Positions 27,990 through 59,194 of a DNA stretch of 64,000 bases are shown piece after piece. The DNA is from Nanobdellota archaeon. Its GTDB lineage: Archaea > Nanobdellota > Nanobdellia > Pacearchaeales > GW2011-AR1. The first letter of the stretch is position 1. Every line of letters begins with the position of its first letter. The stretch lies in NCBI GenBank assembly GCA_038044745.1, contig JBBSZK010000002.1, positions 35,790 to 99,789 on the forward strand. Reading direction: 5' to 3'. The position numbers and the translations under genes are program-made. The notes under the pieces are model-generated. The model saw nothing but the letters and a program-made list of their open reading frames with translations. It was not told the DNA's origin and made no database searches.

Positions 27990-28113
27990 GAGCCTATAGC
28001 TCAGCCCGGTTTAGAGCACCGCTCTTATAAGATACGCGCTCGTGAGGGCGCCATTTTCATCGAAAAAATTCGAAGAAAGGCGGGGGTCCCCGGTTCAAAT
28101 CCGGGTAGGCTCA
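27990..28113 (+). tRNA. tRNA-Ile (anticodon UAU) with ~48-nt intron (28030..28077) at the canonical 37/38 position
   Basis: Hand fold: acceptor GAGCCUA/UAGGCUC, D stem GCUC/GAGC, anticodon stem CCGCU/GGCGG, loop CUUAUAA, variable loop GGGUC, T arm CCCGG-UUCAAAU-CCGGG, discriminator A. No encoded CCA. Confidence 0.65.
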
Positions 28114-30163: not shown

Positions 30164-30290
30164 AGACGGCCCTCCAGAACAAAACCTTCTGCATAATCTT
30201 CGAAAATAGCCGCCTTTTTAACCCTTCCGTTTTGCAGGTGTTCCATGCAAATAGTAACGTTTAAAACCGCTTTTCAACTCGTTTCAAAAT

Positions 30291-30363
30291 GCCCTTGTAG
30301 TCTAGTGGCCAAGGACGTCGCCCTTTCGCGGCGAAAACCCGGGTTCAAATCCCGGCAGGGGCA
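30291..30363 (+). tRNA. tRNA-Glu (anticodon UUC)
   Basis: Hand fold: acceptor GCCCUUG/CAGGGGC (one G-U), D stem GUCU/AGGAC, anticodon stem UCGCC/GGCGA, loop CUUUCGC, T arm CCGGG-UUCAAAU-CCCGG, discriminator A. No encoded CCA. Confidence 0.8.
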
Positions 30364-30380
30364 TAAACCATTTTGGCATT
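30351..30380 (+). repeat. attL: 30-bp direct repeat (cccggcaggggcataaaccattttggcatt) overlapping the last 13 nt of tRNA-Glu
   Basis: Exact copy at 57948..57977. The flanking sequence diverges on both sides. Confidence 0.8.
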
Positions 30381-30445: not shown

Positions 30446-31594
30446 ATGAAGATAGACCCATATAATAACAAAGAAAGATACCTTGCATGGCAACAATCGA
30501 CTACCAAGGGTATTCCCAATATTTCAAGCCAAAACTCTGAGATCATACTTCACTATCTAGAAGATATGGAAAGAGGGCTGAATGTAGCAATTGGAAGCCC
30601 AAAGGGTGGCCGAAGTTACCATAGATTAAATTCTCTAAAGGAACGGATGATTTTCTTTGCCAGACAATTTGCAGAACGACACGGAACAATAAAGCTGACA
30701 GAGATTACAGAGGATCAAATGTTAAACTTCTTCTTTGACATGAGAAAAGGGATAGTGAAAAAGCAAGACGGAGGCACCTATAAATCGGTCGATACATACG
30801 CTCGCATTTTTAGAGCATTTTGGCATTGGCACCAAAAAACGAGCAAGAAGCAAGGAATAGAAATCTCAGATATAACGACAGACTTGGACACAAGTGAAGA
30901 AAAACCAGACTGGGTATATCTCACAGAAAAACAAGTAAAGACGCTTGCTGAAAGCGTAAAATTCGATCATAAGGTGCTTATCATGTTTCTTTTCGATTCG
31001 GGAATACGCGCACCAACAGAACTCATCAACGTAAAAGTGTCCGATCTACACAACAATTGCAAGGAGCTTAATATTAGACAAGAAGTAAGTAAAACCTTCG
31101 GCCGTAGGATTAAACTCCTCATCTGTTCGGAACTGCTAAAAGAATACATCGAAAATAACGCCCTTCGGCCAGACGATACTCTTTTCGACATAAGTCCGCC
31201 CGTGTTTAACCGGTTCCTCAAAAGAGCAGGGTTAAAATTGTTCGGCGATAAACCCAGTCCTGCAGGACAAAATTATTCCGAGCTTACTATGTACGATTTT
31301 CGACACTGTTCTTGCTGTTACTGGTTACCACGATATAAATCGGAATCTGCCCTCAAATACAGATTTGGCTGGAAAAAAAGCGAAAAGATTCATTACTACA
31401 GTGAATTGCTAGGTATGAAAGACACAATCTCCGAAGAAGACCTCCTAATAGACACAACAAAGATAGAAATCGAGCAAAGACTCGAACGCTCAGAAAAAGA
31501 AAAAGCCATTATGCAAGATAGGATTAAGACAATGGAGTTGCAAATGGTCAATATAATGGAACTTGTCAAGCAACTCGAGATGGCTCATAAATAG
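30446..31594 (+). CDS. int: tyrosine recombinase / integrase (phage-integrase family)
   Basis: C-terminal catalytic region FDSGIRAPTELINVKVSDL...MYDFRHCSCCYWL...KIHYYSELLG is consistent with the R..H-x-x-R..Y arrangement. Lies beside the tRNA att site. Confidence 0.75.
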   Translation: MKIDPYNNKERYLAWQQSTTKGIPNISSQNSEIILHYLEDMERGLNVAIGSPKGGRSYHRLNSLKERMIFFARQFAERHGTIKLTEITEDQMLNFFFDMRKGIVKKQDGGTYKSVDTYARIFRAFWHWHQKTSKKQGIEISDITTDLDTSEEKPDWVYLTEKQVKTLAESVKFDHKVLIMFLFDSGIRAPTELINVKVSDLHNNCKELNIRQEVSKTFGRRIKLLICSELLKEYIENNALRPDDTLFDISPPVFNRFLKRAGLKLFGDKPSPAGQNYSELTMYDFRHCSCCYWLPRYKSESALKYRFGWKKSEKIHYYSELLGMKDTISEEDLLIDTTKIEIEQRLERSEKEKAIMQDRIKTMELQMVNIMELVKQLEMAHK

Positions 31595-32901: not shown

Positions 32902-34017
32902 CTAATGATTTTCAATCAAAGAGACAAGAAGATTTATCTTCTCAAACAACTCATCAAAGGTAATTATCTCTATGTTGGACAACTCATTTCTAAAAATATC
33001 GAAGGACTTCATTTTTTCTAAATCGTTAAGTTCATCTATCGCGTTTCCGATAATTATGAATCCTCGTGGATTATAGGAATTAAATTTTGTATCTGAAGCT
33101 GCAGAGAGATTGTTAAACTCCTTAACTAAATCATCCCTCATCACACATACTTGAGTAACTGCTCCGCTAAGTTCCGGAGAGATGGAGTAGATATTATTTC
33201 TATATTTAGCTCCAATTATTTTAGCAACAGGGGTCTTTATTTCAACGATGCAGATGTTATTAGTTATTTTGTTTCTATAAAGAAAATCAGCATAATTTCC
33301 GCCTTGATTTTCTATCCCCTTTCCCCCAACATAGGCCTTATCTTTCAGAATAATATTTGGAGCAGGAGAAATATGTGAAAGAACCCAAGAATTATCTTTA
33401 AGGAGTGTCTGCCAGAATTCTTCTCTAGAATTATTCTTATTATTTTCCCATGCTTCAGTCATCCTCTTAAGAGAAGCTATATTCACCAGAGAAGAGAGTT
33501 TTTCTCCATCCTGGGTTGTTAGTTTCTTTATTGCCTGAACAAGAGCAGGAATATTGCTTGATTGGGCCACTCCAACAATAATTTCTTCTAATGTGGCAGA
33601 TCCACTTCTTTCGATTATTTTTCTGATTGCTTCACGATTCTTCAATAAATCATCTACGACCTCTCCGAGGTTCTCGTCAGTGATAGTTATCGTGTGTGTG
33701 CCCGATTTTATCCCCAATTTTTCGTAAATTTTATAACATTTATCCAACTCACTAATAAGAGTAAATAACTCTTCAGAGTGCAATTGCAATTGAGTCCATT
33801 CACCTGCCTTCAACTTATTTGCGTCAATATCTTTGTAATTTTCCCATTCTTCATTTTTACCTTTTCTTTGGAGGCGGAAAGTCCCTTTTACACTGGCCTT
33901 CGGATTCTTCTCGTTTTCTACGATAAGAGGATAAAATAAAAGTCGAGTCGTTGTTGTTTCTCGTAAGGTAATTGGGGGCGCTTCAGCAGAAGTTGAAGAT
34001 GTTGATTTGATTAGCAT
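32902..34017 (-). CDS. PD-(D/E)xK nuclease-fold protein downstream of res; possible Shedu-like (DUF4263-type) defense nuclease
   Basis: NYADFLYRNKITNNICIVEIKTP provides the D...ExK core. 371 aa. Co-oriented with and immediately downstream of the type III R-M. Confidence 0.4.
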   Translation of the reverse strand: MLIKSTSSTSAEAPPITLRETTTTRLLFYPLIVENEKNPKASVKGTFRLQRKGKNEEWENYKDIDANKLKAGEWTQLQLHSEELFTLISELDKCYKIYEKLGIKSGTHTITITDENLGEVVDDLLKNREAIRKIIERSGSATLEEIIVGVAQSSNIPALVQAIKKLTTQDGEKLSSLVNIASLKRMTEAWENNKNNSREEFWQTLLKDNSWVLSHISPAPNIILKDKAYVGGKGIENQGGNYADFLYRNKITNNICIVEIKTPVAKIIGAKYRNNIYSISPELSGAVTQVCVMRDDLVKEFNNLSAASDTKFNSYNPRGFIIIGNAIDELNDLEKMKSFDIFRNELSNIEIITFDELFEKINLLVSLIENH

Positions 34018-34079
34018 ATTATCAATCTAAAATTCACCCTTCGAGTTATAAATTCTCCTACACTACACTCAAAAGGTGT

Positions 34080-36266
34080 CTAAAACTCTAAGAACTTCCA
34101 GTCTTTACCTAAATTCGCTTCATTAAATTCGTACTTTTTACTATCATTGTAACGCCAACTGCCGTCCTTTGATACAGCTATTCCGCCCCATAATTTCTTG
34201 CCCTTTTTATTCTCTCTTTCAATGTAATGTGCTAAAGCCTCGGCCTTAGGTTTTGCGTCTTCGGCAGTCCTACCGGACTTCGTATCAAACAGCCCAACAC
34301 TTCCGTCTTTCATATAAACGATAAAGTCGACATAAAATGCCCTTTCAATACCATTTTCATCACTATACTTTACGGCAAACCATTTTATTTCGCTTTCTCC
34401 ATTTTTGAACCACCAAATCACCTTATTGCCTGCCTTTTCTAAAAGCTCGATGAATTCTTTTTCTGGTTTGCTACCTTCTTTTGCATATACGGGAACCATT
34501 ATGCTCTTCTTATAAGGCATTTTGACATATCTACTATTATGTTCGATCATTTCAGGAACCTCCCAAATGACAGGAACTTCTTCTCTCTGTTCTGCCAAAT
34601 TTTTGATAATTTTCTCAGTATATTCTTCTTTGGCCTTGTTGACTAAATCAAACAAGATTTGCCTATTTGCCTCACTTAATACTAACTTTTGTACATCGTC
34701 CCAATCTTCAACATCAACGACTTTTTCGAATAACTTGTATAACGCAGTCCTCATTACACCGCTCGAGTCTGCCGGGGCGAATGGAGTACATAGTTCTCGA
34801 AGAAGTAAATCAAAGCGATATTGTAGCTCTTTGGGAGTAAGATTGACCTTGATTCCTTCTTTATCTGACTTTACTATCTGCGCCTCATCTAGCTTAACGA
34901 TTTTACCATCGACCATTATACTCGCGATTAACTTGCCCCGATCTCTACTTATTTTTCTACCAAAATTTTGCTTTTTCCCTTCTTCTACTAATATTTTTGA
35001 AAATTCTCCCGAGAGCCTAGTCTTCTCTCTCTGTCTTTTCAAATAGATAGAATTTAGCTGAAGATTCTTATATATTACGTCATTTCTTTTTGATTCATAG
35101 ACAGTTAAGTAATCTTTGGCGATATCCTCAGCAATTTCTATGTTTGAAAGATTTGTATATACATATCCTCTGTTTAGCTTATCATTTTCATAATGTTTAA
35201 GTTCTGGCATTCGCATGATTCTTCCAACTGTCTGGATAGAGAAAACAAGGCTTTGCCATTCTCTAAACAACACCAGAATTTGAGCCCTTGGACAGTCCCA
35301 GCCTAGTGAAATAGCGTGCTTGAAGATAAGAACCTCAACATCGCTTTCATTTTTCTCTATATTTGCTAGATTAGGAGTCTTGTCTTCAGAAAGCCATCTC
35401 GCTAACTTGCCATTTTCTTCAGTTATCTTAAACTTATCTCGAAGTATTTGCTCTATATCGTCTTTCCTATCTATGACTCCAGTTTTTTTGTCAGGAAGTT
35501 GAATAAGGACTAAAGGGTTAATTTTTACCCCTTCTTTTGCGTAGGCCTTTAGAATTTCTTCGCGTTTCTTAAGTGCACACTCTAAAACTAGCTCGTCTGC
35601 ACTTTTCTTTATCTTTTCCTTATCAATTTCAGGATTTATTGAAACCTCTTTTTTGATCATTCCCTCCTCAATAACTTTTGCGAAATCAACCTCCACCATA
35701 TGACCCTCCAATTTTGGAGGTGTTGCAGTTACCTCGATAGCAACTTTGGGTGCGATCTCAGCAACAATTTCTTTCGATTTTTCACTCTTCGCAGTATGAT
35801 GGCTTTCATCAATTACAAGTATTATCTCTTGACCATCTTCTTTTGTATTTGCAATTACTGTGGAAAGGTTGTTGTCTTGTTCATTATCGCGAACATAGAG
35901 GTTTTCTTTTTTGTTGATACTTTCCCAATTGAAAAATAGAACTTCGTTCTCCCCTATTCTCTTATCTTCTAAATCTTCAAAGTCTGAGCATTTAATAATC
36001 CTAGAATCTTCAAAAAAACGGTCTAATTTTTCCTTGCTTTGTGTATGCAACTGACGAACCGAAATCCAGATAAAAGATAGGCGTTTGTTGTCAATTCTGT
36101 CAGTAACGAGTCTCTTTAACGCTTCAGCCATCATAATTGTCTTTCCGCTTCCTGTTGGAGCCTTGAAAACACAGACTTTGTTCTCCGAGAAATCAAGTAA
36201 TCGGTTCACGGTATCTCTTAATTCAGAAACCGCATCTTCTTGATAACCCTTTAATTCAATTATCAT
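34080..36266 (-). CDS. res: type III restriction enzyme, Res subunit (SF2 helicase + C-terminal nuclease domain)
   Basis: Walker A KAPTGSGKT, DEAH box VIDESHH, helicase motif VI QTVGRIMR. C-terminal FYVDFIVYMKDGSVGLFDTKSG is a PD-ExK-like nuclease block. 4-nt overlap with mod. Confidence 0.85.
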   Translation of the reverse strand: MIIELKGYQEDAVSELRDTVNRLLDFSENKVCVFKAPTGSGKTIMMAEALKRLVTDRIDNKRLSFIWISVRQLHTQSKEKLDRFFEDSRIIKCSDFEDLEDKRIGENEVLFFNWESINKKENLYVRDNEQDNNLSTVIANTKEDGQEIILVIDESHHTAKSEKSKEIVAEIAPKVAIEVTATPPKLEGHMVEVDFAKVIEEGMIKKEVSINPEIDKEKIKKSADELVLECALKKREEILKAYAKEGVKINPLVLIQLPDKKTGVIDRKDDIEQILRDKFKITEENGKLARWLSEDKTPNLANIEKNESDVEVLIFKHAISLGWDCPRAQILVLFREWQSLVFSIQTVGRIMRMPELKHYENDKLNRGYVYTNLSNIEIAEDIAKDYLTVYESKRNDVIYKNLQLNSIYLKRQREKTRLSGEFSKILVEEGKKQNFGRKISRDRGKLIASIMVDGKIVKLDEAQIVKSDKEGIKVNLTPKELQYRFDLLLRELCTPFAPADSSGVMRTALYKLFEKVVDVEDWDDVQKLVLSEANRQILFDLVNKAKEEYTEKIIKNLAEQREEVPVIWEVPEMIEHNSRYVKMPYKKSIMVPVYAKEGSKPEKEFIELLEKAGNKVIWWFKNGESEIKWFAVKYSDENGIERAFYVDFIVYMKDGSVGLFDTKSGRTAEDAKPKAEALAHYIERENKKGKKLWGGIAVSKDGSWRYNDSKKYEFNEANLGKDWKFLEF

Positions 36267-38008
36267 TTGAATATTCTCCTATACACATGAAGTATAACCT
36301 CAGGTATTGGGCACAATTTTGCTTTATTCTTAAGCTCTTTGAATTCCTTTTCGGGAACCTTCCCGTCTAATGAAAAGACGTAAACATGGATTTTTTTATC
36401 AAGCTTTTTAGCTTCCTTAACAAAGTCCTCAATAGAATCTTCATCAAACACAATACCCAAATAATAATTATGGTTCTTGAATATCTTCCATTCCCTCTTA
36501 CCCTTGACCGGAATGAATGCGTTTTCTTTAATGCAAATCATCTCTGTAGACTTATCCACAATTTTCTTTTTGTTTTTATCGGTAGGCGCTGAATCGACAA
36601 AGTCTGTCTTAAAGTATTTGAGATTTCCTCCGAGCCCTTCAACTCCCTCTTGACCTGAACTTTTGTACCCTTTGATGACTTTATTAATACGAGGGTAACA
36701 AACCTCTGTGCAGATATTATTTTCATTATTTGTGCATAAAATAAACCTTCGGCTTCCTCCGTCTTCCTTGTTTAAATCAAGGACTGCGTGGCCTGTTGTT
36801 CCAGAACCTGCAAAAAAGTCTAAAACTAAACCATTTTTTGTTGAACAATATCTTATCAGATCTTTAATCAAATAATGGGACTTGGGGCTATCGAATTTTT
36901 TCATCCCATCAAATAACTCTCTTAGAACAGTCGTAGCCGTGTCAGTTGAGTAATCACTATCAATAAGAAAAGATTTCATCTTCAATTTCTTCTCTTCGCC
37001 ATTTTTAAAAAGATAATCTTTCTGGAAAACATCCCATTCATTCCTACCAGAAACTATCTTAGCAACTAGTTCGATTGAACGAACAGTTACAGCCTTCTTT
37101 TCCCATCGCCAACAACCTTCATTACCATTCGACAACTTTGGAGTCACTTCGATATTATGAGTTTTTGTTTTTTCAACAGAAACAGTTTTTCCAACAGGGT
37201 CAATGTAAATTGGATAGAACAAATTCGGTCTATCTTTTCTTCGACTATTGGACCCCCTCTTTCTTAATCCTTGTAACCTATATTTGCCATTTTGGTCTTC
37301 TAAATTATATTCATCCAGAGACTCTGGAGTCATAGGAAGGCCATTTATCTCTGCCGAGGCAGTCTTTCTGTAAAAAAGAAGATATTCATGGGCTGTTGCA
37401 ACATACTTTTTATCGCTTCTTCCCGCAAGATTATTTACTAAACACACATTGGATATAAAGTTATTTCCACCAAAAATCTCGTCACATAAAATTCTCAGCT
37501 GAGCTTGTTCATTGTCATCGATAGAAATGACTATTAGGCCCCCATCTTTTAGAAGTTCTCTGGCAAGTTTAATTCTCTTTTCCATAAACGAGAGCCATTT
37601 ACTATGTCTATAAGCATCTTCTAAATCAACATATTGGTCATTGTATTTGAAATCTTTATTTCCAGTATTATATGGTGGATCGATATAAATAACATCAATT
37701 GATTTGTTATGAGTAAAGTTAAGGGCAGCTAAAGAATGATAGTTATCCCCTTCAATCAGTAAATTAAAATCTTTTTCTTTATCAGTTATAATCTCTTTAT
37801 CACTAACTTCTTTTAATACGGGCAGTTTGTGTTCCGTTCCAGGAAACTTCTCCTCTGTCTTTTGGCCATCCCAATTTATGTAGTAATCAAAAGCCTCTTT
37901 CGTTTTATCTTTTTCCCACACAAGCCCATAAGTCTTTTGTTTTCTTAATGCTTCAACCTCCTTGATTAAATCATCTTTAGACCAGCCAGACAAATCCCTT
38001 TTCACCAT
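36263..38008 (-). CDS. mod: type III R-M Mod subunit (beta-class N6-adenine DNA methyltransferase)
   Basis: Motif IV VIYIDPPYNTG precedes motif I VLDFFAGSGTTGHA, the beta-class order. 581 aa. Confidence 0.85.
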   Translation of the reverse strand: MVKRDLSGWSKDDLIKEVEALRKQKTYGLVWEKDKTKEAFDYYINWDGQKTEEKFPGTEHKLPVLKEVSDKEIITDKEKDFNLLIEGDNYHSLAALNFTHNKSIDVIYIDPPYNTGNKDFKYNDQYVDLEDAYRHSKWLSFMEKRIKLARELLKDGGLIVISIDDNEQAQLRILCDEIFGGNNFISNVCLVNNLAGRSDKKYVATAHEYLLFYRKTASAEINGLPMTPESLDEYNLEDQNGKYRLQGLRKRGSNSRRKDRPNLFYPIYIDPVGKTVSVEKTKTHNIEVTPKLSNGNEGCWRWEKKAVTVRSIELVAKIVSGRNEWDVFQKDYLFKNGEEKKLKMKSFLIDSDYSTDTATTVLRELFDGMKKFDSPKSHYLIKDLIRYCSTKNGLVLDFFAGSGTTGHAVLDLNKEDGGSRRFILCTNNENNICTEVCYPRINKVIKGYKSSGQEGVEGLGGNLKYFKTDFVDSAPTDKNKKKIVDKSTEMICIKENAFIPVKGKREWKIFKNHNYYLGIVFDEDSIEDFVKEAKKLDKKIHVYVFSLDGKVPEKEFKELKNKAKLCPIPEVILHVYRRIFK

Positions 38009-38043: not shown

Positions 38044-38364
38044 CTAATTACTATCTTTAACTCTTCCCAACAACAGCAAAATAGGCGTAACATCCTTCTT
38101 CTCTAAACTATCAAGTAACTGTTTTAGCTCTTTAGGCGAGCGATTATAAAACATAGCATACCCGAACTTGCCACGCTTTTCTTTGAGTTGGGGGAACATA
38201 TCCACGATTTCCTTTCGGAGCTGGATAATGTTCCATGCTTGAGTGCTTTCTTTGTAGGACAGCTTTCCCTTTATACTGATGCTCTCTCGGGGACTCAAAT
38301 ACAGCAAGTCTCTGATTGTGTTCTTCTCGTCTACTTCTTTTTCTTCTTTCATGTTAGTTCCCAC
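38044..38364 (-). CDS. hypothetical protein
   Basis: 106-aa ORF between mod and the CYTH gene. No motif recognised. Confidence 0.35.
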   Translation of the reverse strand: MGTNMKEEKEVDEKNTIRDLLYLSPRESISIKGKLSYKESTQAWNIIQLRKEIVDMFPQLKEKRGKFGYAMFYNRSPKELKQLLDSLEKKDVTPILLLLGRVKDSN

Positions 38365-38395: not shown

Positions 38396-38935
38396 TTATT
38401 TTACAAAGTTTACTTTACCTGTTGCAATATCGCATAACCAGACGTCGTTTCTAATCTTATCTCGTGATATTCCCATCTTTTCAAGCATCTGAGCGAGTGC
38501 TTCTTTCTTTTCAGCTATTTGCGATTCTTCACCATCAGTCTCGATTTCGATGAAATTTCCAATATCCTTTACTTCATCTAACGTGATGCTAAACTCGCCA
38601 AGCTTGAAAGTCTCTCGCTTTTTGTCGATAACTCCTAAAAGAGGAAAGTTAAGTCCATTTAGAATCTGTTTAAAGACTTCAAGGTTATCAACTGCTGTTT
38701 CGTATTCTTTTGTAACACCATCCGCAATATTGACATGATATGCAAATACACCTGTATTTTCGTTTGGTTTATACCTGAGACGAATATACTCTTTGGTTTT
38801 TCGCGTATCTCGTTGAGGATGATTGTAATATTCATCAATCTGATGCTTTTGTTTTTCTTCTTTAGCTCCTAACTTCTTAAGTTCTGCTTTGACTTTCTGC
38901 TTGTCTTCAAAGGTTGCTTTGATTTCAATTTCCAT
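38396..38935 (-). CDS. CYTH-domain protein (class IV adenylyl cyclase / triphosphate tunnel metalloenzyme family)
   Basis: N-terminal MEIEIKATF is the ExExK signature. 179 aa, a typical size for CyaB-like CYTH proteins. Confidence 0.7.
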   Translation of the reverse strand: MEIEIKATFEDKQKVKAELKKLGAKEEKQKHQIDEYYNHPQRDTRKTKEYIRLRYKPNENTGVFAYHVNIADGVTKEYETAVDNLEVFKQILNGLNFPLLGVIDKKRETFKLGEFSITLDEVKDIGNFIEIETDGEESQIAEKKEALAQMLEKMGISRDKIRNDVWLCDIATGKVNFVK

Positions 38936-38958
38936 GTAGTTGTATGCCTCCTTTCATG

Positions 38959-40410
38959 CTATGCTCCATTGACCGTAAGTTGCATATGGCGCGTTGCACG
39001 TCTATGCGAAGGTCTATGACATGTCGATTCTGTTCTAATGACTTGAATATCATTACGTTGATCTTTATCTATAATTTCCTCTAGATATAATGGATCAATG
39101 GCAGGATTGACCTCTTGCATGCCTATTGCTTCTGCAATATGATGATAGTGATCAACCATTAATCTAACTCCATTTCGACCTAAGCTAGTAGGTGTAGCAA
39201 CTGGTTGTTTATGTGTGTATCTATTATAATCTGCTGAAAGTACACGTAATTCTCCTGCCATGTTACGTTCAAATCCGCTTCCTGGGTGAGGGGTAATAAA
39301 CGAGATATAGGTAATAACGCCAGGCAATCTTCCTGTTTCTTCAATAAATACTGCGTTTTCAGCAAGTGTTTCTGGAGTTTCGCCTGGATATCCAAACATA
39401 TACACAGGATTGACTTTACATCCACTCTCTAATAGAACGTCAAATGCTCCGCGAATGGTACGTGCTTTAACGCCCTTGTCCATAGCATCAAGCATGGCTT
39501 GAGAGACTGATTCTACGCCAGTATGGATTGTATCAACTCCTGCTGCGACCATTTGCCTTATAAGGTCTGGCTTTATGCCATCAATGCGCGATTTAGCCTT
39601 ATAGTTTAACCCTAAGTTAGCTTGTTCAATAGCTCCAAAAAGCTCAGCACACCATTTTCCATTTAAGGTAATTGTTTCGTCTTTGAAGTGTACTCGCTTA
39701 AATCCAAATCCATTAAGCATTTCAAGTTCAGCTAAAATATTTTCAATAGAACGCCTGCGATAGCGATATTCCCATAGTTCATTGAGCGTGCAGTGATCGC
39801 AAGCCATTGGACAACCACGCGCTGCATATATTCCTGCAGGCGACATCTTAGCATATTCTTCAACTGGTACCAAATCATAGGCAGGCAGGGGGATTGTGTC
39901 TAAGTCTTTGATAAGTTCCTTATCGGGCATGCGCACAATATTATCTCCATCCCTAAACGCAACTCCCTTTAGATCTGTTTTATTTAAAGTACCTTCAGCA
40001 ACTCGTAAGACTTTGGACAATCCCTCTTCTCCTTCCCCAAATATTACATAATCAATTGCTCCAGTTCGCAAAACAACATCCGCGTTAAACGTAGGATATA
40101 ATCCGCCCATGACAGTTATTTTGCCCATTTCTTTAGCTTTTCGCAAGATAGCTAACGAATCTGGAGATTCAGCTGTACATGCTCCAATTCCTACCACATC
40201 AGAATCTCTAAGGTCTTGTTCAAGGTTGCGAGGAATGCCGAGAGCCTTGTTAAGTCGATAGTCTATAACTCTCACATGAGTTCCATTTCGATCTTGAACA
40301 TAGCCTGCAAGGTACAAAAGACCTAACGGAATGCCGACGTCTCCTGCGTATCCTTGTTTCTTAACTGGGAACTTAATTTCAGGCTTAATGAGAGTCAATT
40401 TAGCTGTCAT
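38959..40410 (-). CDS. B12-binding radical SAM enzyme (class B radical SAM)
   Basis: N-terminal cobalamin-binding-like Rossmann segment (DVVGIGACTAESPDS...ITVMGG). CxxxCxxC cluster ARGCPMACDHC. 483 aa. Confidence 0.75.
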   Translation of the reverse strand: MTAKLTLIKPEIKFPVKKQGYAGDVGIPLGLLYLAGYVQDRNGTHVRVIDYRLNKALGIPRNLEQDLRDSDVVGIGACTAESPDSLAILRKAKEMGKITVMGGLYPTFNADVVLRTGAIDYVIFGEGEEGLSKVLRVAEGTLNKTDLKGVAFRDGDNIVRMPDKELIKDLDTIPLPAYDLVPVEEYAKMSPAGIYAARGCPMACDHCTLNELWEYRYRRRSIENILAELEMLNGFGFKRVHFKDETITLNGKWCAELFGAIEQANLGLNYKAKSRIDGIKPDLIRQMVAAGVDTIHTGVESVSQAMLDAMDKGVKARTIRGAFDVLLESGCKVNPVYMFGYPGETPETLAENAVFIEETGRLPGVITYISFITPHPGSGFERNMAGELRVLSADYNRYTHKQPVATPTSLGRNGVRLMVDHYHHIAEAIGMQEVNPAIDPLYLEEIIDKDQRNDIQVIRTESTCHRPSHRRATRHMQLTVNGA

Positions 40411-40501
40411 TGTAAAATTACTACAAAAGTAAATTATTTAAACCCTGTTTAACTTTTTATTGAACAAAATGGAGTCTGTAAAGTAGATTACTCTGACTAA
40501 A

Positions 40502-41746
40502 ATGGAAGAAAAAACCTTTGCAATATACCCTAGCGATAAGAAAGATTATGACCTAAAGATCGTTCCAGACATAGCAGACGGCAAGTTGTTAACAGTTTTT
40601 TGTTCTTTTACTTTCATTACTCCAAACTATTCTATTCTTTTTACTTTAGAGCAATTGAGAAAATTTGCCAGCTCGGGCAATTATCAAGTGCATATTGTGC
40701 TGTGGGATATGAATATCTTAGCTAATCCTTACTTCGAAAAACTCTATTCCCTTAAGAAAATTGCTCATCCCTCTTCTTTTATTGATGATAAAGTTCAAGA
40801 GATAAAGGCTATCACCAGCTCTATGGGTTTTAATAAAGAAAAAGTATTAGTTTACAAATCTTCAGATTTATGGAAACGCCTTATTTCCTATAAAGATGAT
40901 GATCTATTCCAGGAGTTTTATTCTATTCTGGCTCAAATGAAGACTACGAGTTTTCATGTTTCAGGCGATAAGATATCTCACATGATCCAAATCCCTATGG
41001 ACATTTTCTTTTGCAACCATTTCCATAAATTGTATCCAGAAGACGTTGAACGTCCTATTGATTTAGTCTTTTTCGGAGAAAATAAAGAAGAGCTTTATCT
41101 GGCTTGTAGGGAACTTATGATTTCCAAGCGTATTGTCCAACATAAAAACCCTCTGTTTATTCTCATGAAGAATATACCTTATTTGCTGTTCAATAACATT
41201 ACTCCCGAATGGAATATGAGCTTAAGAGAAATTAAAGACATTGTTGTGGGATGCAATCCTTCCAAAAAGGACTTATTCACTCTTCTTAGTCATCTTGATG
41301 AAATTTCAGGTTTTGTTCGTATAAAGAAAAAAGGATATAATCAGGATTTAGAATATTCTTCTTTTTACAAAGAATATAAGAATATTTTAACAGAAGAATT
41401 ATTCCAAATTCTGGCAGATAATCTCTATCTTTTCTTTCAAGATAGAAAGAAGAAGTATCTGAAGGCTACTGGGGAGATTGAAGAAACAATTCTTAACCTC
41501 TCAAAAAAGAATGATGTCCAAGAAATGGGTTCGATATTGAAGAGCACGATTGCATTAGATATCCTTCTGAAAGCAGATGGGACTCGCACAACTACAGATA
41601 TAGCCAAGGAATTGAATAAGTCTATCGCTACTATAAGCACCTATGCTAATGATCTTAAGAAGATGAAGCTTATTCGGGTTTTGCCTGAAGGCAAGCTTAA
41701 AAGAAATATTAAAGGTGTGAAGATTAATCTAGAACTGGGAATTTAG
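40502..41746 (+). CDS. hypothetical protein with C-terminal winged-helix HTH; N-terminal domain weakly resembles a degenerate class I aaRS (TrpRS/TyrRS-like) Rossmann fold
   Basis: C-terminal TTDIAKELNKSIATISTYANDLKKMKLIRV is a wHTH. N-terminal LLTVFCSFTFITPNYSILFTLEQL...HIVLWDMNILANP has the pattern of the TrpRS HIGH region but lacks HIGH. Confidence 0.35.
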   Translation: MEEKTFAIYPSDKKDYDLKIVPDIADGKLLTVFCSFTFITPNYSILFTLEQLRKFASSGNYQVHIVLWDMNILANPYFEKLYSLKKIAHPSSFIDDKVQEIKAITSSMGFNKEKVLVYKSSDLWKRLISYKDDDLFQEFYSILAQMKTTSFHVSGDKISHMIQIPMDIFFCNHFHKLYPEDVERPIDLVFFGENKEELYLACRELMISKRIVQHKNPLFILMKNIPYLLFNNITPEWNMSLREIKDIVVGCNPSKKDLFTLLSHLDEISGFVRIKKKGYNQDLEYSSFYKEYKNILTEELFQILADNLYLFFQDRKKKYLKATGEIEETILNLSKKNDVQEMGSILKSTIALDILLKADGTRTTTDIAKELNKSIATISTYANDLKKMKLIRVLPEGKLKRNIKGVKINLELGI

Positions 41747-41927: not shown

Positions 41928-43358
41928 ATGGGTGATAAGGCATTATTTATCTTATCTCTAGTTTTTTTTGCGGTCTTATTATCTTCTTTGCATTTTTCAT
42001 CAGCTATTGAAATTGAATACAACCTTACTTACGATGCAAACGGTAACCTCATACAAGGTTTCGATAAGTATTTTGAATATGACGGTTTAAACAGATTGAC
42101 TGAAGTAAGAGAAAGCGATGAGAATGGAGTTCTTCTAGAACAATATTTTTATGATTCAGTTGGAAATCGTATCAAAAAAATAACCTATAATGGCGCGCAA
42201 AACGAAACTACTTACTATATTGATAAAAATTTTGTTCAAGTTGTAAACAGTTCAGGCACCTTTAACTATACTTACTATTATGCTGACGGCCTACTATTAG
42301 CTGCTAAAGACCCTTCTGGAAAAAAGCAATTCTATCATCCAGATCATCTAGGAAGTACGAACCTTATAACCAATGAATCAGGACAAATAATAGAGAACAC
42401 AATTTACTCTCCTTACGGAGAAGTAACTGACGAGGGACAAGAAAGCCGTTATCTTTTTACAGGCAAGGAGTTTGACCGCAGTACCGATTTATATTATTAT
42501 GGCGCTCGATATTATGATCCTATTACTAATCATTTTATCCAACCAGATTCTCAGATTCAAGACGTATACAATCCGCAAGACCTAAATCGATATTCTTATG
42601 CTCGTAATAACCCGTATAGATATACCGACCCTTCTGGAAATGCGGTTAATCTTGTTACAGGAGCCATTGGAGCTACTATAGGTGGTGGAGCTTCATTTAT
42701 CATCTCAGTTATATCTCAGTATTCTTCAACAGGACAAGTCAATTGGGCTGACGCAGGCAAAGATACTGCTGCAGGTTTAGTTGCAGGAGGAGTAAGCGGT
42801 CTAACATTTGGTGCTGGTGCTGTTTTGTTGGGGGGAGAGCTATCTTCTGGTTCGATAATGATTCTTATGGGTGCCTCGGGATCCCTTGGATCAGGGGTAG
42901 GACAAATAACATCGAACTTACTTTATGATAGAGCGATTACAGATAATGTACCGCAAGCCGCTATTGCAGGCGGAGCTTTATCAGTAGCAACTGCAGGAGC
43001 AGTTAAAGGTGGGTCTTCTATACTTAAATCACTAAATATAAATTCAGGATTTAATAAATTAAATTTTGCTAGTAAAGAAGCTCTTATTAAACATTTTGAG
43101 TCGCATGGAAACGATTTTGGTTTTACTTCATCCAATCAATATTTAAAAGCAAGTCAGAATTTCTTGGCTGGAAAAGCAGGAAAAGGGGTTTTGGAATATA
43201 CTCGACCAATCGGTGATGTTGTAAGATATAATCCTCAAACAAATGAGTTTGGAGTTAAAACTGCTCAAGGGACTATAAGAACTTACTTTAAACCTACGGA
43301 AGGAGCAAGATACTATGCAAGCGATAAAGCCAATTACTTACCGGAGGTAGATGAATGA
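41928..43358 (+). CDS. secreted RHS/YD-repeat protein with RHS repeat-associated core and C-terminal polymorphic toxin domain (type unassigned)
   Basis: Signal peptide MGDKALFILSLVFFAVLLSSLHFSSA. YD repeats (YFYDSVGNRIKKITYNG). RHS core hallmark YYGARYYDPITNHFIQPD ... NPYRYTDPSGN. C-terminus has Gly-zipper GAIGATIGGGASFIISVIS and a ~150-aa unique tail. Confidence 0.75.
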   Translation: MGDKALFILSLVFFAVLLSSLHFSSAIEIEYNLTYDANGNLIQGFDKYFEYDGLNRLTEVRESDENGVLLEQYFYDSVGNRIKKITYNGAQNETTYYIDKNFVQVVNSSGTFNYTYYYADGLLLAAKDPSGKKQFYHPDHLGSTNLITNESGQIIENTIYSPYGEVTDEGQESRYLFTGKEFDRSTDLYYYGARYYDPITNHFIQPDSQIQDVYNPQDLNRYSYARNNPYRYTDPSGNAVNLVTGAIGATIGGGASFIISVISQYSSTGQVNWADAGKDTAAGLVAGGVSGLTFGAGAVLLGGELSSGSIMILMGASGSLGSGVGQITSNLLYDRAITDNVPQAAIAGGALSVATAGAVKGGSSILKSLNINSGFNKLNFASKEALIKHFESHGNDFGFTSSNQYLKASQNFLAGKAGKGVLEYTRPIGDVVRYNPQTNEFGVKTAQGTIRTYFKPTEGARYYASDKANYLPEVDE

Positions 43359-43786
43359 GCAGTAGAAGAAAAGAAACAATTAAACATGATGAAAGCCCTG
43401 TAAGAAAAATAGTACAAGACTCTAAAAGAGAAAAGTATAACAAATTTTTAAGCTTAAAGGCCGCCCTACATTATAAAGATGCTTATCTCGTTATGGAAGG
43501 AGATTGTGGAGGACAGATTTATTTAACTGTTCCAGTAAAATTTGTAAAATGTAATGAAAAAACCCTTAGAAGTCTTTTGAATGAAATAGATTCTTTGGCT
43601 TGGAAAGACCCAGAATGCGCAGGTTTTTATTTTGAAAGAAGACCTAAAGGAGAGATTCTTATAGGCGGTATGGGGGGAGGAAAGATTCAAGACGATCTAT
43701 GGGTGCATAAAGAACTTGAATATCTCAAGGAAAAAATAAGATTAATTTTGAAAGGAAAGGTTAACGCAGATGATTTGATAAAATGA
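43355..43786 (+). CDS. putative cognate immunity protein of the RHS toxin
   Basis: 143-aa ORF whose start overlaps the toxin stop (ATGA). This is the canonical position for polymorphic-toxin immunity genes. No known motif. Confidence 0.45.
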   Translation: MSSRRKETIKHDESPVRKIVQDSKREKYNKFLSLKAALHYKDAYLVMEGDCGGQIYLTVPVKFVKCNEKTLRSLLNEIDSLAWKDPECAGFYFERRPKGEILIGGMGGGKIQDDLWVHKELEYLKEKIRLILKGKVNADDLIK

Positions 43787-46700
43787 GAAGAAAATCTAAA
43801 ATTGTAATAACCTTGGTCTTTTTTATTTGTCTTGTAATTATTGCCATGTCATCGGTAAAGGCAATAGGCCCTTTACCAATCTATCTACAAGACCCTATTG
43901 TTCCTGATTCTCCCTTATCACTTCAAAGCAGGTCAGAGACAGACGTATACACAGGAGCATTTACTCAGAATTTCCCTATTCAATTACCTCTAGGTACCAA
44001 TGGGTTAAAACCCTCTTTATCTTTATATTATAATAGTCATATGTTTGATTCTCCAAGACAGAGTTTGATAGGTAATGGTTGGGATGTACAGTTAAATTAT
44101 ATAGAAAGAAGAACTAATTACACTGCTTCTAATATTTCGGACGATTACTACGTTATTGTTTTTAACGGAATCAAAGAAGAGAATTTAATTTACGACCCAG
44201 TTCAAAGATCGTATGAGACAAAAATAAGGAACTTTTTTTATATTTCTAATTTAAGTGGAGGACAAGGCACGGGAGGTTTATATTGGACAGTAAAAACTGG
44301 GGACGGATCTATATATAGATTCGGTTATTGGAATAATTCTTTATTGAAGGCTGGACTTTATAACTATACATCACGATGGTATCTTGATTTAGTTAATGAC
44401 ACCTATGGAAACCAAATTTTTTACAATTATAGCATTAACCCTTATGCAAATGATAGTTCTGCAGTTTATCCACTTTCAATAGAATATAATAACGATAGAC
44501 AGAGAAAAATAGAATTTGTTCTAACTTCAGTAGATAGAATCGATAAGAAGACTCAATATATAGAAGGTAGTTTTATCAGATTAAGTCGAGCAATAAAAGA
44601 AGTTAGGATTTTAGCTAATGGTTCTCTTGTCAGAAAGTATGATTTGGGATACAACGGTACAGATTATCGAAATCTTTTAATAAATTTAACTGAATTTGGT
44701 TCAAATAACTCTCTTTCATTAAGCCCAATATCTTTTAATTATTCATCATCTTCTAAGAATTTTACCAACATAAATTCTCAGTGGTCTATTCCTTCGGGGG
44801 TATTCTTTCATATAGGTTGGACTAATGGGGGGAGTGATACGGGTGTTCGCTTGGCCGATATCAATAGAGACGGCAAGGTAGATTTATTAAAGGCCTATTG
44901 TAATTCTAACACCTATTCGTGCTATCAAAATCCAAATCAAATAGATAGAGCAGTGTGGTTGAATAATGGAAGCGGGTGGACAAGCTCAAATCTTCAATTG
45001 CCACCTATTCCTTTTGGTGTTAGCTATAATTGGGACAGCGGAGCAAGAATTATAGATATAAACGGAGATGGTTTTACAGACATAGTACAAACTTGGATAG
45101 ATGATCAGGATCCGAATAAAGTTATAAGAGAAACGTGGTTAAATAATGGTACGGCTTTCATAAATAATACTAACTGGAGTATTGAATCCGACATTTTCTT
45201 TCACATGGGATGGGTTGATGGAGGGAGTGATACTGGAATAAGAATTGCAGATTTAAACGGAGACTCGTTACCTGACCTAGCAAAAAGTTATTGTAACAAC
45301 CCGCCGTGGTTATGTTCAAATCCTGAAAGAAAGGTATGGATTAATACTGGAAAGGGTTGGAGAAATGACTCTGGAATTTCCTTACCGCCGGTCACTTTCA
45401 GAGTTAGTAATCACGCAGAACCTGGCACATTCATAAATGATTTAAATGGAGATGGACTAGCAGATGTTGTTCAATATTGGAGGCAAGATGATTTCTCTTC
45501 GGATCAACCAACACAATTAAGTGTGTGGTTAAATAATGGAAGCGGATTTAACAATTTTACCTCTAATTGGAGCATGCCTTCAGAAGCATTCTACGTAGGA
45601 TATACTAATGGAGGTATGGATAACGGTGTTCGTTTAATAGACATAAATGGAGACAATCTTATTGATGTCATCCAAGCGAGATGTTACTCTAATACTCGAG
45701 GGTGTTATGATTCACCAGGGCTTATTCAAAAAAATGTTTGGTTAAATAATGGAAAAGGGTGGGTTCTAGACCAAAACTGGAGTCTGCCTGATCCAATTGC
45801 CTTAATTAACAATTATAACTGGGATCCTGGTACAAGAATGGCAGATATCAACGGGGATGGGATTACCGATTTTATACAGCTATGGCAGGACGGGTCTGAT
45901 GAAATTAAAGATATTTGGATAAATAATGGTCAAAAAGGATATATTCTTCAGTCAGTTAAAAATCAATTTGGAGGTATTACTCGCGCCTCGTACAAACAGT
46001 CAACTCTTCTAAATAATACAGGCGTAGACACTTTAAATGATATTGGTTTCAATTTGTGGGTAGTTGAAAATATAAGCAAGGACAATGGATTAAACACTTC
46101 GCATAAGGTTATACAGGTTGCTCGATATAATTATGTGGGAGCATTATACGAATATCCTACAAAAGAATACAGAGGGTTTGCATATAGTCGTGAGAATTTA
46201 AGTGAAGGAATAATCAAAGAACATTATTTTCTACAAGAAGAAGGCAACAGAGGTCAAGAATATCTCATTAAATTAAGTAACAAAAGCGGTTCGTTGTACA
46301 CAACCATTTATAGAGATTGGAAATTATCTTTTAGCAATGGTTTATATAAGCTAGAATTAAAAAACATAACTGAACTAGTTTATGATGGTTTGGCAATTAA
46401 CCCTCGTCCACGCCTTACTGTTTTTAATTATGATCAATTTGGGAATATAATAGTAAAACAACTATTGGGAGATCCTCAAAACTTAGAAGATGATACATAT
46501 GAATATTTTGAATATGCTACAAATAATAGTACATGGATAATCAATAAAGTTAAAAATTATACTTTGTACGGGAGCGATAACCAAACCAAGTTTAGACAAA
46601 CGCTTTATTATTATGATAATTTAGTATATGGTGGCTCTCCAACTAAAGGAAGTATCACGAAGAAAGAGGAATGGTTAAGCGGAGGAACAAATCCTTTAAC

Positions 46701-56962: not shown

Positions 56963-57571
56963 TTGTCCCCGACTCGTTATAAGGTTATTTTGATGGGAGA
57001 ATTCATGAAACAAAAACCATTTTCATGGAAATTTGATATACGGAAAAAGTATAGTATCATCTACGCTGACCCTCCGTGGAAATATAATACAAAAGTCAAT
57101 TACCCCACCGTTCCCATTAGAGATATTCAGAAATTCCCTATTGATCAAATTGCAGATGATAACTGCGCCTTGTTTCTCTGGGCCACCTATGCTATTCTAC
57201 CTGAATGCATAGAAACTCTCAAAAAATGGGGATTCAGATACGTTACCGTTGCATTCACGTGGGTCAAGACCAATAAAAATGACGGCAGGCCATTTTTTGG
57301 GCTAGGAGCATGGACACGAGCCAATGCAGAAGTCTGCTTATTAGGATTAAAGGGAAATGTAAAGCGAGAATCCTCAAAAGTAAAGCAAGTGGTTCTCTCC
57401 CCCTTACGCGAACACAGCCGTAAGCCTGATGAAATTCGTGATAGTATTGTAGAATTATTGGGAGACTTACCCCGTATTGAATTATTTGCTCGCCAAACCG
57501 TAAGGGGCTGGGATTGTTGGGGTAACGAAACTAAAAAATTCAACAAGGAGACTCATGGAAAGCACCATTGA
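56963..57571 (+). CDS. MT-A70-family N6-adenine DNA methyltransferase (orphan; start more likely ATG at 57005)
   Basis: YSIIYADPPWKY carries the DPPW motif. GGGAGA SD-like sequence lies upstream of the 57005 ATG. No adjacent restriction gene. Confidence 0.7.
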   Translation: MSPTRYKVILMGEFMKQKPFSWKFDIRKKYSIIYADPPWKYNTKVNYPTVPIRDIQKFPIDQIADDNCALFLWATYAILPECIETLKKWGFRYVTVAFTWVKTNKNDGRPFFGLGAWTRANAEVCLLGLKGNVKRESSKVKQVVLSPLREHSRKPDEIRDSIVELLGDLPRIELFARQTVRGWDCWGNETKKFNKETHGKHH

Positions 57572-57828: not shown

Positions 57829-57850
57829 AGAACAAATGCCAAAGACGCTT

Positions 57851-57877
57851 AAACTCGATCTCGACAATCTTTATAAA
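57851..57877 (+). repeat. copy 1 of ~25-nt repeat AAACTC-N-ATCTCGACAATC(T/C)TTA-AAA
   Basis: aaactcgatctcgacaatctttataaa. Related copies at 58621..58637 and 59195..59221. Confidence 0.5.
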
Positions 57878-57947: not shown

Positions 57948-57977
57948 CCCGGCAGGGGCATAAACCATTTTGGCATT
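57948..57977 (+). repeat. attR: second copy of the 30-bp direct repeat; preceded by the 11-bp inverted-repeat arm tgccaaaatgg (57931..57941), complementary to ccattttggca inside the repeat
   Basis: Exact match to 30351..30380. Confidence 0.8.
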
Positions 57978-59152: not shown

Positions 59153-59194
59153 AGTAAGATATATCTTACCCGCGTATATAAATCTTCCGTTCTT

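Follow-up and report, generated by a model that had tools for sequence, protein, structure and literature searches.

A predicted pseudo-aminoacyl-tRNA-synthetase regulator and a putative radical SAM-CYTH cassette on an integrative element of a Nanobdellota archaeon

HisZ and the HisRS-like domain of GCN2 are aminoacyl-tRNA synthetase (aaRS) folds that have become regulatory sensors of an amino acid or of uncharged tRNA. Cyclodipeptide synthases (CDPSs), which use aminoacyl-tRNA, are enzymes of the TyrRS/TrpRS fold without the HIGH and KMSKS motifs (PMC3105412). All three are precedents for aaRS folds without aminoacylation, but none of them is known to be fused to a DNA-binding domain. Among the triphosphate tunnel metalloenzymes, those of the phosphohydrolase type carry the signatures ExExK, DxY, YxRxR and ExE, and SaTTM (Saci_0718) of S. 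acidocaldarius is a triphosphatase that forms no cyclic nucleotide, "cyclase" annotations of archaeal proteins being unsupported (Vogt et al., PMC8233210); the SaTTM operon includes an S-adenosylmethionine (SAM) hydrolase (bioRxiv 10.1101/2025.08.29.672840). A cobalamin (B12)-binding domain joined to a radical SAM (rSAM) core constitutes the class I architecture, an example being the glutamine C-methyltransferase QCMT (PMC12931638). Here we describe a locus in which such components meet. It lies in a stretch of 64,000 nucleotides (nt) of a Nanobdellota archaeon (GTDB lineage Pacearchaeales; GW2011-AR1; GenBank assembly GCA_038044745.1, contig JBBSZK010000002.1, positions 35,790 to 99,789 of the forward strand), hereafter the window, and comprises a gene for a predicted pseudo-aaRS fused to a winged helix-turn-helix (wHTH) domain, divergent from genes for a B12-binding rSAM enzyme, a CYTH protein and a small protein of approximately 100 amino acids (aa). 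No description of this architecture or gene combination was found in the literature. The components come from known superfamilies and the logic of a sensor-wHTH protein with its target operon is familiar; unusual are (i) the pseudo-TyrRS sensor, (ii) the uncharacterised rSAM-CYTH pair and (iii) the swapping of cassettes on mobile elements of DPANN archaea.

The regulatory architecture predicted from the sequence, in which a one-component factor acts through a repeat operator on a leaderless operon divergent from its gene, is well supported by comparison. Our favoured interpretation, to which we give slightly better than even credence, is that the pseudo-aaRS/wHTH protein controls a swappable, element-borne cassette tailoring a phosphorylated nucleotide, sugar or cyclitol. 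According to this model, the pseudo-aaRS N-domain, lacking ATP-activation motifs, would sense a ligand or tRNA, while the C-terminal winged helix would bind direct repeats and thereby repress or activate the cassette. The minus-strand operon (rSAM, then CYTH, then the small protein) would be expressed from a leaderless promoter, with two or three of these repeats flanking its TATA box; the rSAM enzyme would carry out a radical C-methylation or a related rearrangement, and a tri- or polyphosphate group would be hydrolysed, or with less likelihood cyclised, by the CYTH protein. In related archaea, at least three interchangeable cassettes would be under this regulator and cis-element. Observed are the domain identities, the predicted fold, synteny, a cis-element and a mobile setting; we infer that the winged helix binds the repeats and that the N-domain is a sensor, and likewise which class of substrate is used, by what chemistry and to what biological end.

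The regulator, rSAM and CYTH genes had been delimited in an initial annotation made from the sequence alone, and all three open reading frames (ORFs) are real (Table 1), with the rSAM and CYTH genes back-to-back, as it had described them, 23 nt apart, and the regulator gene divergent, 91 nt from the rSAM gene. The same annotation had read the regulator as an aaRS-like (TrpRS/TyrRS-type) domain without HIGH coupled to a winged helix, a reading that could be confirmed by structure prediction only. An AlphaFold2 model built from 36 homologues had a predicted local distance difference test (pLDDT) score of 90.2 and a predicted template-modelling score (pTM) of 0.78, and the top 50 Foldseek matches of this model in PDB were all TyrRS or TrpRS structures (E 2e-10 to 1e-8, probability 1.00). 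The alignments cover approximately 320-380 columns, i.e., whole chains of class Ic synthetases (M. jannaschii TyrRS, 1u7d/1j1u; human TrpRS, 1r6t), with a TM score of up to 0.68 on the M. jannaschii enzyme, whereas CDPSs, which correspond to the Rossmann part only (~230-300 aa) and have invariant catalytic Ser, Tyr and Glu residues, are outside this top 50. As modelled, residues 1-330 are at fold level a TyrRS/TrpRS-type body.

This kinship is undetectable in sequence. Profile searches, which the initial annotation had proposed, retrieved its CYTH, B12-binding and Radical_SAM families, but not tRNA-synt_1b: the N-domain matched no Pfam or NCBIfam model. No aaRS appeared in a PDB profile search with the regulator, nor among the 151 hits of its profile in 1.84e9 representative proteins (hmmsearch), of which the full-length ones were essentially all two-domain. 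Hhalign against M. jannaschii TyrRS gave a probability of 1%, the non-significant alignment pairing IDLVFFGENKE of the regulator with VDVAVGGMEQR of TyrRS. A sequence-level aaRS link was dropped after these failures, fold comparison alone being successful; a sequence relationship to CDPSs, HisZ or GCN2 is likewise undetectable. The class I motifs were placed by secondary-structure order and comparison with M. jannaschii TyrRS, not by residue-level structural alignment. The HIGH position reads I-T-P-N (FTFITPNYS after strand 1 in the window protein, FTYITPNY in the family), with no histidine, and the ADLHA-type strand reads W-D-M-N, a recognisable equivalent. KMSKS is absent, as are KMSKS-like lysines, the nearest conserved loop being PEWNMSL. 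The 69 full-length homologues (28-100% identity) are all from DPANN archaea, and an identical protein is on record from a metagenome-assembled genome (MAG) labelled "Nanoarchaeota archaeon". The motifs CSFTYITPNY, WDMN, YKSSDLWKR, FFCNYFHKLYPED and PEWNMS are kept whether the neighbouring cassette is of type A, B or C (see below), and residues D69, S121, W124, E180 and R203 of the N-domain are invariant. The family is a small, self-contained group of pseudo-synthetases fused to a DNA-binding domain; we do not regard its members as synthetases because they lack the catalytic motifs, are fused to a wHTH and are sited in accessory cassettes.

Sequence searches with the regulator reveal only a weak C-terminal wHTH (residues 350-396), through several concordant sub-threshold matches: HTH_24 (4e-4) and HTH_5 (9e-3) in Pfam, the cas_HTH/Csa3 wHTH in NCBIfam (2e-5), the CasR wHTH in PADLOC, and MJ223, ArsR and CzrA among PDB profiles. 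PF01022/PF13412 are precomputed on many homologues, the model shows the helix-helix-helix-strand-strand order of a wHTH at residues 336-408, and the domain is present in virtually all 151 family members. The regulator shares this type of C-terminal wHTH with the CARF-wHTH proteins Csa3/CasR and with ArsR/TrmB/MJ223-type regulators, and it shares with archaeal one-component regulators a divergent position beside the predicted target operon and a repeat operator, here a predicted one, by the TATA box. The likeness to Csa3 is limited to the wHTH, the sensor being a pseudo-aaRS and not CARF. A CARF/Csa3 identity of the N-domain was considered and rejected, as the TIGR01884 and PADLOC CasR/Csa3 matches are confined to the wHTH and Foldseek gives TyrRS-like structures.

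The pseudo-aaRS could itself be a pathway enzyme or immunity factor, either a CDPS-like transferase using aminoacyl-tRNA or aminoacyl-adenylate or a decoy binding an aaRS-inhibiting product, with the wHTH secondary. The conserved polar residues D69, S121, E180 and R203 would suit such a role, and type B cassettes resemble aminonucleoside/aminocyclitol chemistry, whose product could receive an amino acid, puromycin offering a comparison. CDPSs provide a precedent for synthetase folds without HIGH and KMSKS (PMC3105412). However, the wHTH is kept almost throughout the family, a dedicated operator is predicted and conserved, the Foldseek matches are full TyrRS/TrpRS structures and not CDPSs, and the candidate nucleophile Ser34 is not invariant (Ala in L058 and L061); we consider this explanation very unlikely.

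Related loci were gathered by exact-protein look-ups, from JGI metagenomes (36 loci) and from the genomes of 185,579 GTDB species, which yielded 14. Merging regulators of at least 95% identity gave 39 distinct groups, 36 of them informative, with enough flank. The B12-rSAM gene adjoins the regulator gene in half of the informative loci (18/36), with CYTH directly after it in 16, so that the trio of the initial annotation is found together in 16/36 distinct loci of other genomes, a conservation not due to chance. In nine further loci the neighbour is a MoaA-like rSAM protein of ~310 aa, usually with CYTH; MoaA models score 135-145 bits on it and viperin ranks second at 60-69 bits (cutoff 180), all under cutoff. 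The type B set, found in four loci (L004/L058, L020/L054, L019 and L052), consists of a GFO-type dehydrogenase (IolG-like, i.e., inositol-dehydrogenase-like), a DegT aminotransferase (PseC-like), a NUDIX protein, a 367-aa protein, a dTMP-kinase-like kinase and a second NUDIX protein. The 367-aa protein matches over its full length StrB1, the inosamine-phosphate amidinotransferase of streptomycin synthesis (PDB 1bwd, 1.5e-55). In two more loci (L012 and L015), DegT and the 367-aa protein are combined with the MoaA-like rSAM. Recurrent extras of the cassettes are the ~100-aa protein, the dTMP-kinase-like P-loop kinase (70 bits), and GreA/Rnk-like, NDK-like, HAD and His_Phos proteins; the NUDIX partners are MutT-like, and CYTH also accompanies cassettes with no rSAM enzyme. 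The GreA-like partner, absent from the window, has weak Gfh1/GreA C-domain similarity only, and in one locus it is the sole gene beside the regulator, the contig ending there. The window cassette (rSAM, CYTH and small protein) is the minimal and commonest version, without a kinase. L019 (CAYLKE010000008.1) belongs to a MAG labelled "uncultured Methanosarcinales archaeon", which could reflect a binning artefact or transfer to a host lineage; the other loci are labelled DPANN (Pace-, Woese- or Nanoarchaeota) or "archaeon".

In the regulator tree, proteins with the same type of cassette mostly cluster, but several switches occur, as would be expected if cassettes were inherited together with the regulator and now and then replaced. 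One signal shared by all cassettes, and not a variable end product, is probably what is sensed, because the N-domain motifs do not change with the attached cassette.

The predicted promoter of the window cassette consists of a TATA box preceded by direct repeats, with a possible third half-site (GTAAAG) at 40477-40482 (Table 1). In the aligned divergent intergenic regions of cassette types A, B and C the element reads AAGTAAAnTATTTAAA-N4-GTTTAAC-TTTTT-RTTTAAC, and TATTTAAA of the TATA box is invariant in 11 such aligned regions; the repeats stand 4 nt upstream of the TATA box, over the position of the TFB recognition element (BRE). Within the 64 kb of the window the combination is matched once, where chance would give 0.18 matches. 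The cassette operon is predicted to be leaderless because the TATA box lies 22-33 nt from the first ATG of the cassette in every arrangement, a distance that fits archaeal promoter geometry. In 23 of the 36 informative loci, a regular-expression search for the GTTTAAC-N5-RTTTAAC-type motif placed the element immediately upstream of the regulator gene, usually as the sole match within 4-21 kb; in four more it stands beside the first cassette gene rather than the regulator, giving 27/36. Where the cassette is relocated, the element follows it: in L012, L015 and L052, where regulator and cassette point the same way, the element is inverted between them and 22 nt separate its TATA box from the first ATG; in L031 the element remains by the rSAM gene though another gene intervenes before the regulator; and in L011 a second TATA-repeat copy precedes the small gene. 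Because of these cases we assign the element, as a sequence-based prediction, to the promoter of the cassette. Of the proteins encoded in these loci, the pseudo-aaRS/wHTH regulator is the one conserved DNA binder, and the control by a wHTH protein postulated in the initial annotation agrees with this tracking of the cassette promoter. In the two deepest-branching type A loci (L016 and L017) the regulator is co-directional with rSAM-CYTH and is preceded by a divergent gene for a MazE/AbrB-like protein of 216 aa; their intergenic region carries a palindromic GGTTATA...TATAAC instead of the GTTTAAC repeats. A scan for sigma-70 promoters and terminators, irrelevant for an archaeon, gave matches below shuffle expectation and was discarded.

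The rSAM call of the initial annotation holds: the enzyme has an N-terminal B12-binding domain (PF02310, 5e-15, 55.8 bits against a threshold of 32.1, residues 23-134) and an rSAM core (PF04055, 1e-17, 65 bits against 29.5), whose CxxxCxxC motif (C200-x3-C204-x2-C207) is invariant in nine homologues. It has this architecture in common with the class B enzymes QCMT, AprD4, OxsB, BchE and PhpK-type P-methyltransferases, but at 20-30% similarity and with low scores, and forms a separate clade defined by its pairing with CYTH. Every NCBIfam equivalog remained 3- to 7-fold under its cutoff (the best, BchE, with 142 bits against 481), and orthology to a characterised class B member (BchE, QCMT, PhpK, HpnR, OxsB, AprD4 and others) was not found. 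The closest solved relatives are QCMT (9ccb, 2.5e-19), AprD4 (6fd2, 2.4e-16) and, weakly, OxsB (5ul2), with PDB matches of at most 73 bits. Approximately 65 homologues exceed 40% identity, almost all from DPANN archaea. The rSAM-CYTH pairing recurs outside DPANN: on a JGI contig a 36% identical rSAM gene is directly followed by CYTH, with genes for inositol-1-phosphate synthase and inositol monophosphatase (IMPase) nearby. In Kibdelosporangium lantanae (L023; BAAHCM010000001.1, ~8.46 Mb), CYTH lies ~2.3 kb upstream of a 37% identical rSAM gene, two squalene-hopene-cyclase-like proteins being encoded between them and a PEP-utilizers_C protein, transposases and a CHAT protease gene around them; with this locus the pairing crosses domains of life. 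Homologues at ~30% identity adjoin glycosyltransferases, not CYTH, and were dropped as a guide to function, these neighbours being uninformative. An rSAM-2H phosphoesterase fusion (P0141) was also left unused, since it has no B12 domain or Cys motif and appears to be a truncated or chimeric call on a 2.7-kb contig.

The CYTH call holds as well (PF01928, E 5e-23, 82 bits, threshold 23.2), the N-terminus MEIEIK (residues 1-6) providing the predicted ExExK motif. DxY (D34-Y36), YxRxR (Y50-R52-R54) and ExE (E130-E132) are found as well, so that the protein has the full set seen in SaTTM and other CYTH phosphohydrolases, and E2, E4, R52, R54, E77, R107, E130 and E132 are kept among 16 homologues (E2 and E4 in 94-100%). 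By these signatures the protein is a member of the triphosphate tunnel metalloenzyme superfamily. Its best solved relative is SaTTM (7ns8, E 1e-12), whose Sulfolobus partners are a SAM hydrolase and NMNAT, in contrast to the rSAM enzyme of the window. The protein also exceeds the cutoff of TIGR00318 ("class IV adenylate cyclase"; 98 bits, cutoff 58), and together with the resemblance of the regulator wHTH to that of Csa3/CasR this could indicate cyclic-nucleotide signalling, with CYTH as an adenylate or nucleotidyl cyclase whose product is sensed by the pseudo-aaRS/wHTH protein, as in CARF-wHTH Csa3. We find this highly improbable, as SaTTM makes no cyclic nucleotide (PMC8233210), the sensor is TyrRS-like, not CARF or SAVED, and the rSAM enzyme and the type B cassettes would be left unexplained.

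The small third protein has 14 close homologues (57-75% identity) and adjoins cassettes of types A, B and C, in 28 of 58 fetched, non-deduplicated loci. It belongs to no Pfam, NCBIfam or PHROG family, matches weakly the PADLOC candidate model PDC-M05B (E 0.004) and gave a poor AlphaFold2 model (pLDDT 49.5).

As to the substrate, the initial annotation had suggested that the trio modifies nucleic acid or nucleotides, as a DNA or tRNA modification or signalling module used in defence or anti-defence. The rSAM enzyme could indeed methylate DNA or tRNA, or the cassette could make a modified dNTP, protecting element DNA from restriction or altering tRNA; CYTH, NUDIX proteins and kinases would then clear and rebuild the nucleotide pool, and the TyrRS-like domain might present tRNA. 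In the window and in L001/L006, type III restriction-modification (R-M) genes directly follow the cassette on its own strand, and L004 has a small N6_N4 methyltransferase gene adjoining the cassette. The dTMP-kinase-like, NDK-like, MutT-like NUDIX and CYTH proteins match the logic by which phage hypermodification pathways operate at the dNTP level, and the whole-chain TyrRS alignment makes it plausible that the anticodon-binding C-terminal region is retained. Yet the R-M association is seen in only two of 36 distinct loci; dehydrogenase, aminotransferase and StrB1-like amidinotransferase of type B fit DNA or tRNA modification poorly; the cassette has no DNA/RNA-binding or glycosylase/transferase component; and neither regulator nor rSAM was found on IMG/VR viral contigs, the usual home of such pathways. 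A nucleic-acid target is not favoured, because the cassettes that this regulator accompanies elsewhere have the look of small-molecule pathways, and we hold it to be unlikely; no result shows DNA, tRNA or nucleotides to be the target. The interpretation in the initial annotation is on the whole partly supported.

We infer instead that the window cassette tailors a phosphorylated nucleotide, sugar or cyclitol, because the sister cassettes carry kinases, NUDIX, HAD and CYTH proteins, keto-amino-amidino tailoring enzymes and an rSAM enzyme related to MoaA, which uses GTP. Type B cassettes, as distinct from the window cassette, combine an IolG-like GFO, DegT, a StrB1-like amidinotransferase, a kinase and phosphohydrolases, as does the streptidine branch of streptomycin biosynthesis. 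They differ from this branch by a kinase that is dTMP-kinase-like and not APH-type, by NUDIX proteins in place of a phosphatase and by having no inositol-phosphate synthase. By analogy they recall a single round of streptidine (guanidino-aminocyclitol) synthesis or a route to a 3'-amino-nucleotide, which is unexpected in DPANN; a nucleotide ribose is an equally possible substrate, as in the Pur10, Pur4 and Pur7 route of puromycin. A polyphosphate-kinase reading through the dTMP-kinase-like partner (PMC12995831) was considered and set aside, the window being without that gene.

A special case of the phosphorylated small-molecule interpretation, rather than a true alternative to it, would be an antiviral or antagonistic nucleotide-analogue factory of viperin-like type, in which the rSAM enzyme makes, from an NTP, an analogue that terminates chains or is toxic. 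Self-toxicity would be limited, or the product processed, by CYTH and NUDIX proteins, and the regulator would induce the cassette on infection or stress. The defence-island and mobile-element setting agrees with it, as do the pairing of MoaA/viperin-related rSAM proteins with dTMP-kinase-like kinases in sister cassettes, the swapping of cassettes under one regulator, which resembles arms-race diversification, and a weak match of the window rSAM to the PADLOC candidate system PDC-M51A (1e-5). Prokaryotic viperin (pVip) loci offer a conceptual analogy, with rSAM genes beside nucleotide-kinase-like neighbours in defence islands and diversified products, but the window enzyme is of the B12 type and the sister rSAM proteins are nearer MoaA than viperin. 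The window rSAM is not viperin-like: the PADLOC pVip models miss it and no viperin model is among its listed NCBIfam matches. The window cassette, moreover, has no kinase, and NTP as substrate is unsupported by the evidence. We judge both the analogue-forming chemistry and the accompanying induction and detoxification quite unlikely.

The trio is cargo of an integrative element of conjugative type, 27.6 kb long (window 30351-57977) and integrated at a tRNA-Glu gene, as its features indicate: perfect 30-nt direct repeats at the tRNA gene, an integrase gene, genes resembling those of type IV secretion systems (T4SSs) and a low-G+C segment (~0.35 between the att repeats and ~0.45 outside, in a composition scan of the window). 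Direct repeats at a tRNA gene together with an integrase delimit this element, and the location inside an element asserted in the initial annotation is borne out. The integrase had no Pfam match. Shedu and type III R-M genes form a defence stretch (32902-38008) inside the element, which also encodes a DsbA-like protein. Directly downstream of the regulator gene lies a polymorphic-toxin-like block (41928-51071) with giant RHS/Tc-toxin-like proteins. It encodes a 476-aa RHS-repeat protein, whose end is overlapped by a 143-aa ORF (a possible immunity protein), and a protein of 1912 aa in which FG-GAP, TcdB mid/N, RHS repeats and Laminin_G_3 are recognised; a further ORF, of 516 aa, matches no family. 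A second, 90% identical 30-nt repeat straddles attR, at 57848-57877 in the element and at 59192-59221 in a flanking MazE/AbrB-like gene. Rfam further detected a tRNA spanning 124 nt (27990-28113, 53 bits), missed by ARAGORN and presumably an intron-containing archaeal tRNA, a mark of the archaeal origin of the window. An element of conjugative type in a DPANN genome is noteworthy in its own right.

Table 1. Coordinates of the regulator-cassette locus and of other features of the integrative element (positions in the window)
Feature	Position	Strand	Size, evidence or remark
tRNA-Glu(UUC), integration target of the element	30290..30364	+	ARAGORN; Rfam tRNA 66 bits; 3' end overlaps left att repeat
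attL, left copy of perfect 30-nt direct repeat	30351..30380	.	repeat search, 100% identical to 57948-57977; at tRNA-Glu 3' end
Element integrase, tyrosine-recombinase type, divergent	30446..31594	+	PHROG integrase families 3e-15 and 2e-10
Shedu SduA	32902..34017	-	same direction as cassette; PADLOC 4e-126
Type III R-M res	34080..36266	-	same direction as cassette
Type III R-M mod	36263..38008	-	same direction as cassette
Small conserved protein, third cassette-operon gene	38044..38364	-	106 aa (NCBI start: 102 aa)
CYTH / triphosphate-tunnel metalloenzyme, second operon gene	38396..38935	-	179 aa; PF01928, TIGR00318
B12-binding-domain rSAM enzyme, first operon gene	38959..40410	-	483 aa; PF02310 + PF04055
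TATA box TTTAAATA (minus strand), predicted cassette-operon promoter	40435..40442	-	ends 24 nt before rSAM start codon
Direct repeats GTTTAAC-TTTTT-ATTGAAC, predicted wHTH operator	40447..40465	.	
Regulator ORF	40502..41746	+	414 aa
Regulator residues 1-330, TyrRS/TrpRS-fold domain, predicted sensor	40502..41491	+	AlphaFold2 + Foldseek
Regulator residues 335-414, wHTH, ArsR/HTH_24/Csa3-C-terminal type	41504..41746	+	
VirB4/TraG-like ATPase, in element	51456..53702		
PrgI-like protein, in element	53671..54513		
T4SS-pilin-like protein, in element	54513..55325		
MT-A70-family methyltransferase just inside attR	56963-57571		
attR, right copy of 30-nt repeat, end of the element	57948..57977	.	repeat search

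The integrase family of this element is encoded within 7 kb of the regulator in seven other distinct loci. This proximity would suit a regulator acting as a lifecycle switch of the element (a repressor of excision or transfer), with the enzymes as metabolic passengers, e.g., in polyphosphate or cofactor housekeeping, where CYTH would remove the inorganic triphosphate (PPPi) of SAM synthesis or cobalamin adenosylation. The operon that SaTTM shares with a SAM hydrolase (bioRxiv 10.1101/2025.08.29.672840) and the finding that dTMP-kinase-like proteins of Crenarchaeota can be polyphosphate kinases (PMC12995831) are in line with such housekeeping. However, the predicted operator tracks the cassette promoter and not the integrase, most loci have no integrase nearby, and CYTH also occurs in cassettes without rSAM. 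Both the switch and the proposed PPPi removal strike us as scarcely probable. Each of the five alternatives considered is less well supported than control of a small-molecule cassette by the pseudo-aaRS/wHTH regulator.

The integrases, R-M, Shedu and toxin genes of the neighbourhood suggest a conflict role (defence or antagonism) of the cassette; other loci are flanked by R-M, Mrr, SLFN/AlbA_2, PIN-RHH and HsdR genes. The mobile-element and defence-island setting of the defence module proposed in the initial annotation is thus real, whereas PADLOC found no known defence system in the trio beyond the weak rSAM candidate-model match and CasR/Csa3 matches to the wHTH alone. A bolder version, which we consider rather unlikely, would have a dead TyrRS/TrpRS sensor, whose ligand might be an aromatic amino acid, a molecule resembling an aminoacyl-adenylate or uncharged tRNA, switch on mobile, interchangeable "chemical weapon" cassettes of genome-reduced DPANN archaea upon a common signal of stress or infection: (i) B12-rSAM with CYTH, (ii) MoaA-like rSAM with CYTH, or (iii) a guanidino-amino-sugar/nucleotide pathway. 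If true, this would be GCN2-like sensing wired directly to DNA binding. No inducible system of defence or antagonism by small molecules would have been described in DPANN before it, and its rSAM-CYTH reaction pair would be new.

Several observations weigh against the favoured interpretation, i.e., regulation of a cassette that tailors a phosphorylated small molecule. The lack of a PADLOC match for the trio is one of them, and so is the absence of regulator and rSAM from the IMG/VR contigs. Four informative loci (L047, L056, L057 and L061) have no recognisable cassette, nor does P0230, the more remote homologue of the regulator that was inspected, and the repeat motif as defined is missing from 9/36 loci. 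The wHTH of the window regulator scores under the Pfam gathering thresholds, and the strong conservation of the N-domain at D69, S121, W124, E180 and R203 would also suit an enzyme instead of a sensor. Furthermore, a nucleotide and a cyclitol or sugar substrate cannot be separated, given rSAM-CYTH beside inositol-1-phosphate synthase and IMPase and the streptidine-like type B.

The protein-family libraries searched contain no model for the regulator N-domain or the small protein, and any function found would be a new annotation, because the family is small (151 hits in 1.84 billion proteins) and without a library model. If the model holds, the pseudo-aaRS would be a new sensor domain among prokaryotic one-component regulators, with a clean predicted operator, and a new non-translational offshoot in aaRS evolution. 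The locus would also define a conserved B12-rSAM/CYTH pair extending from DPANN archaea to an actinomycete. Ultra-small, host-dependent archaea would then carry swappable small-molecule pathways on integrative elements, one of which resembles the synthesis of aminoglycoside or aminonucleoside precursors, and this would bear on their competition with viruses, with their hosts and with each other.

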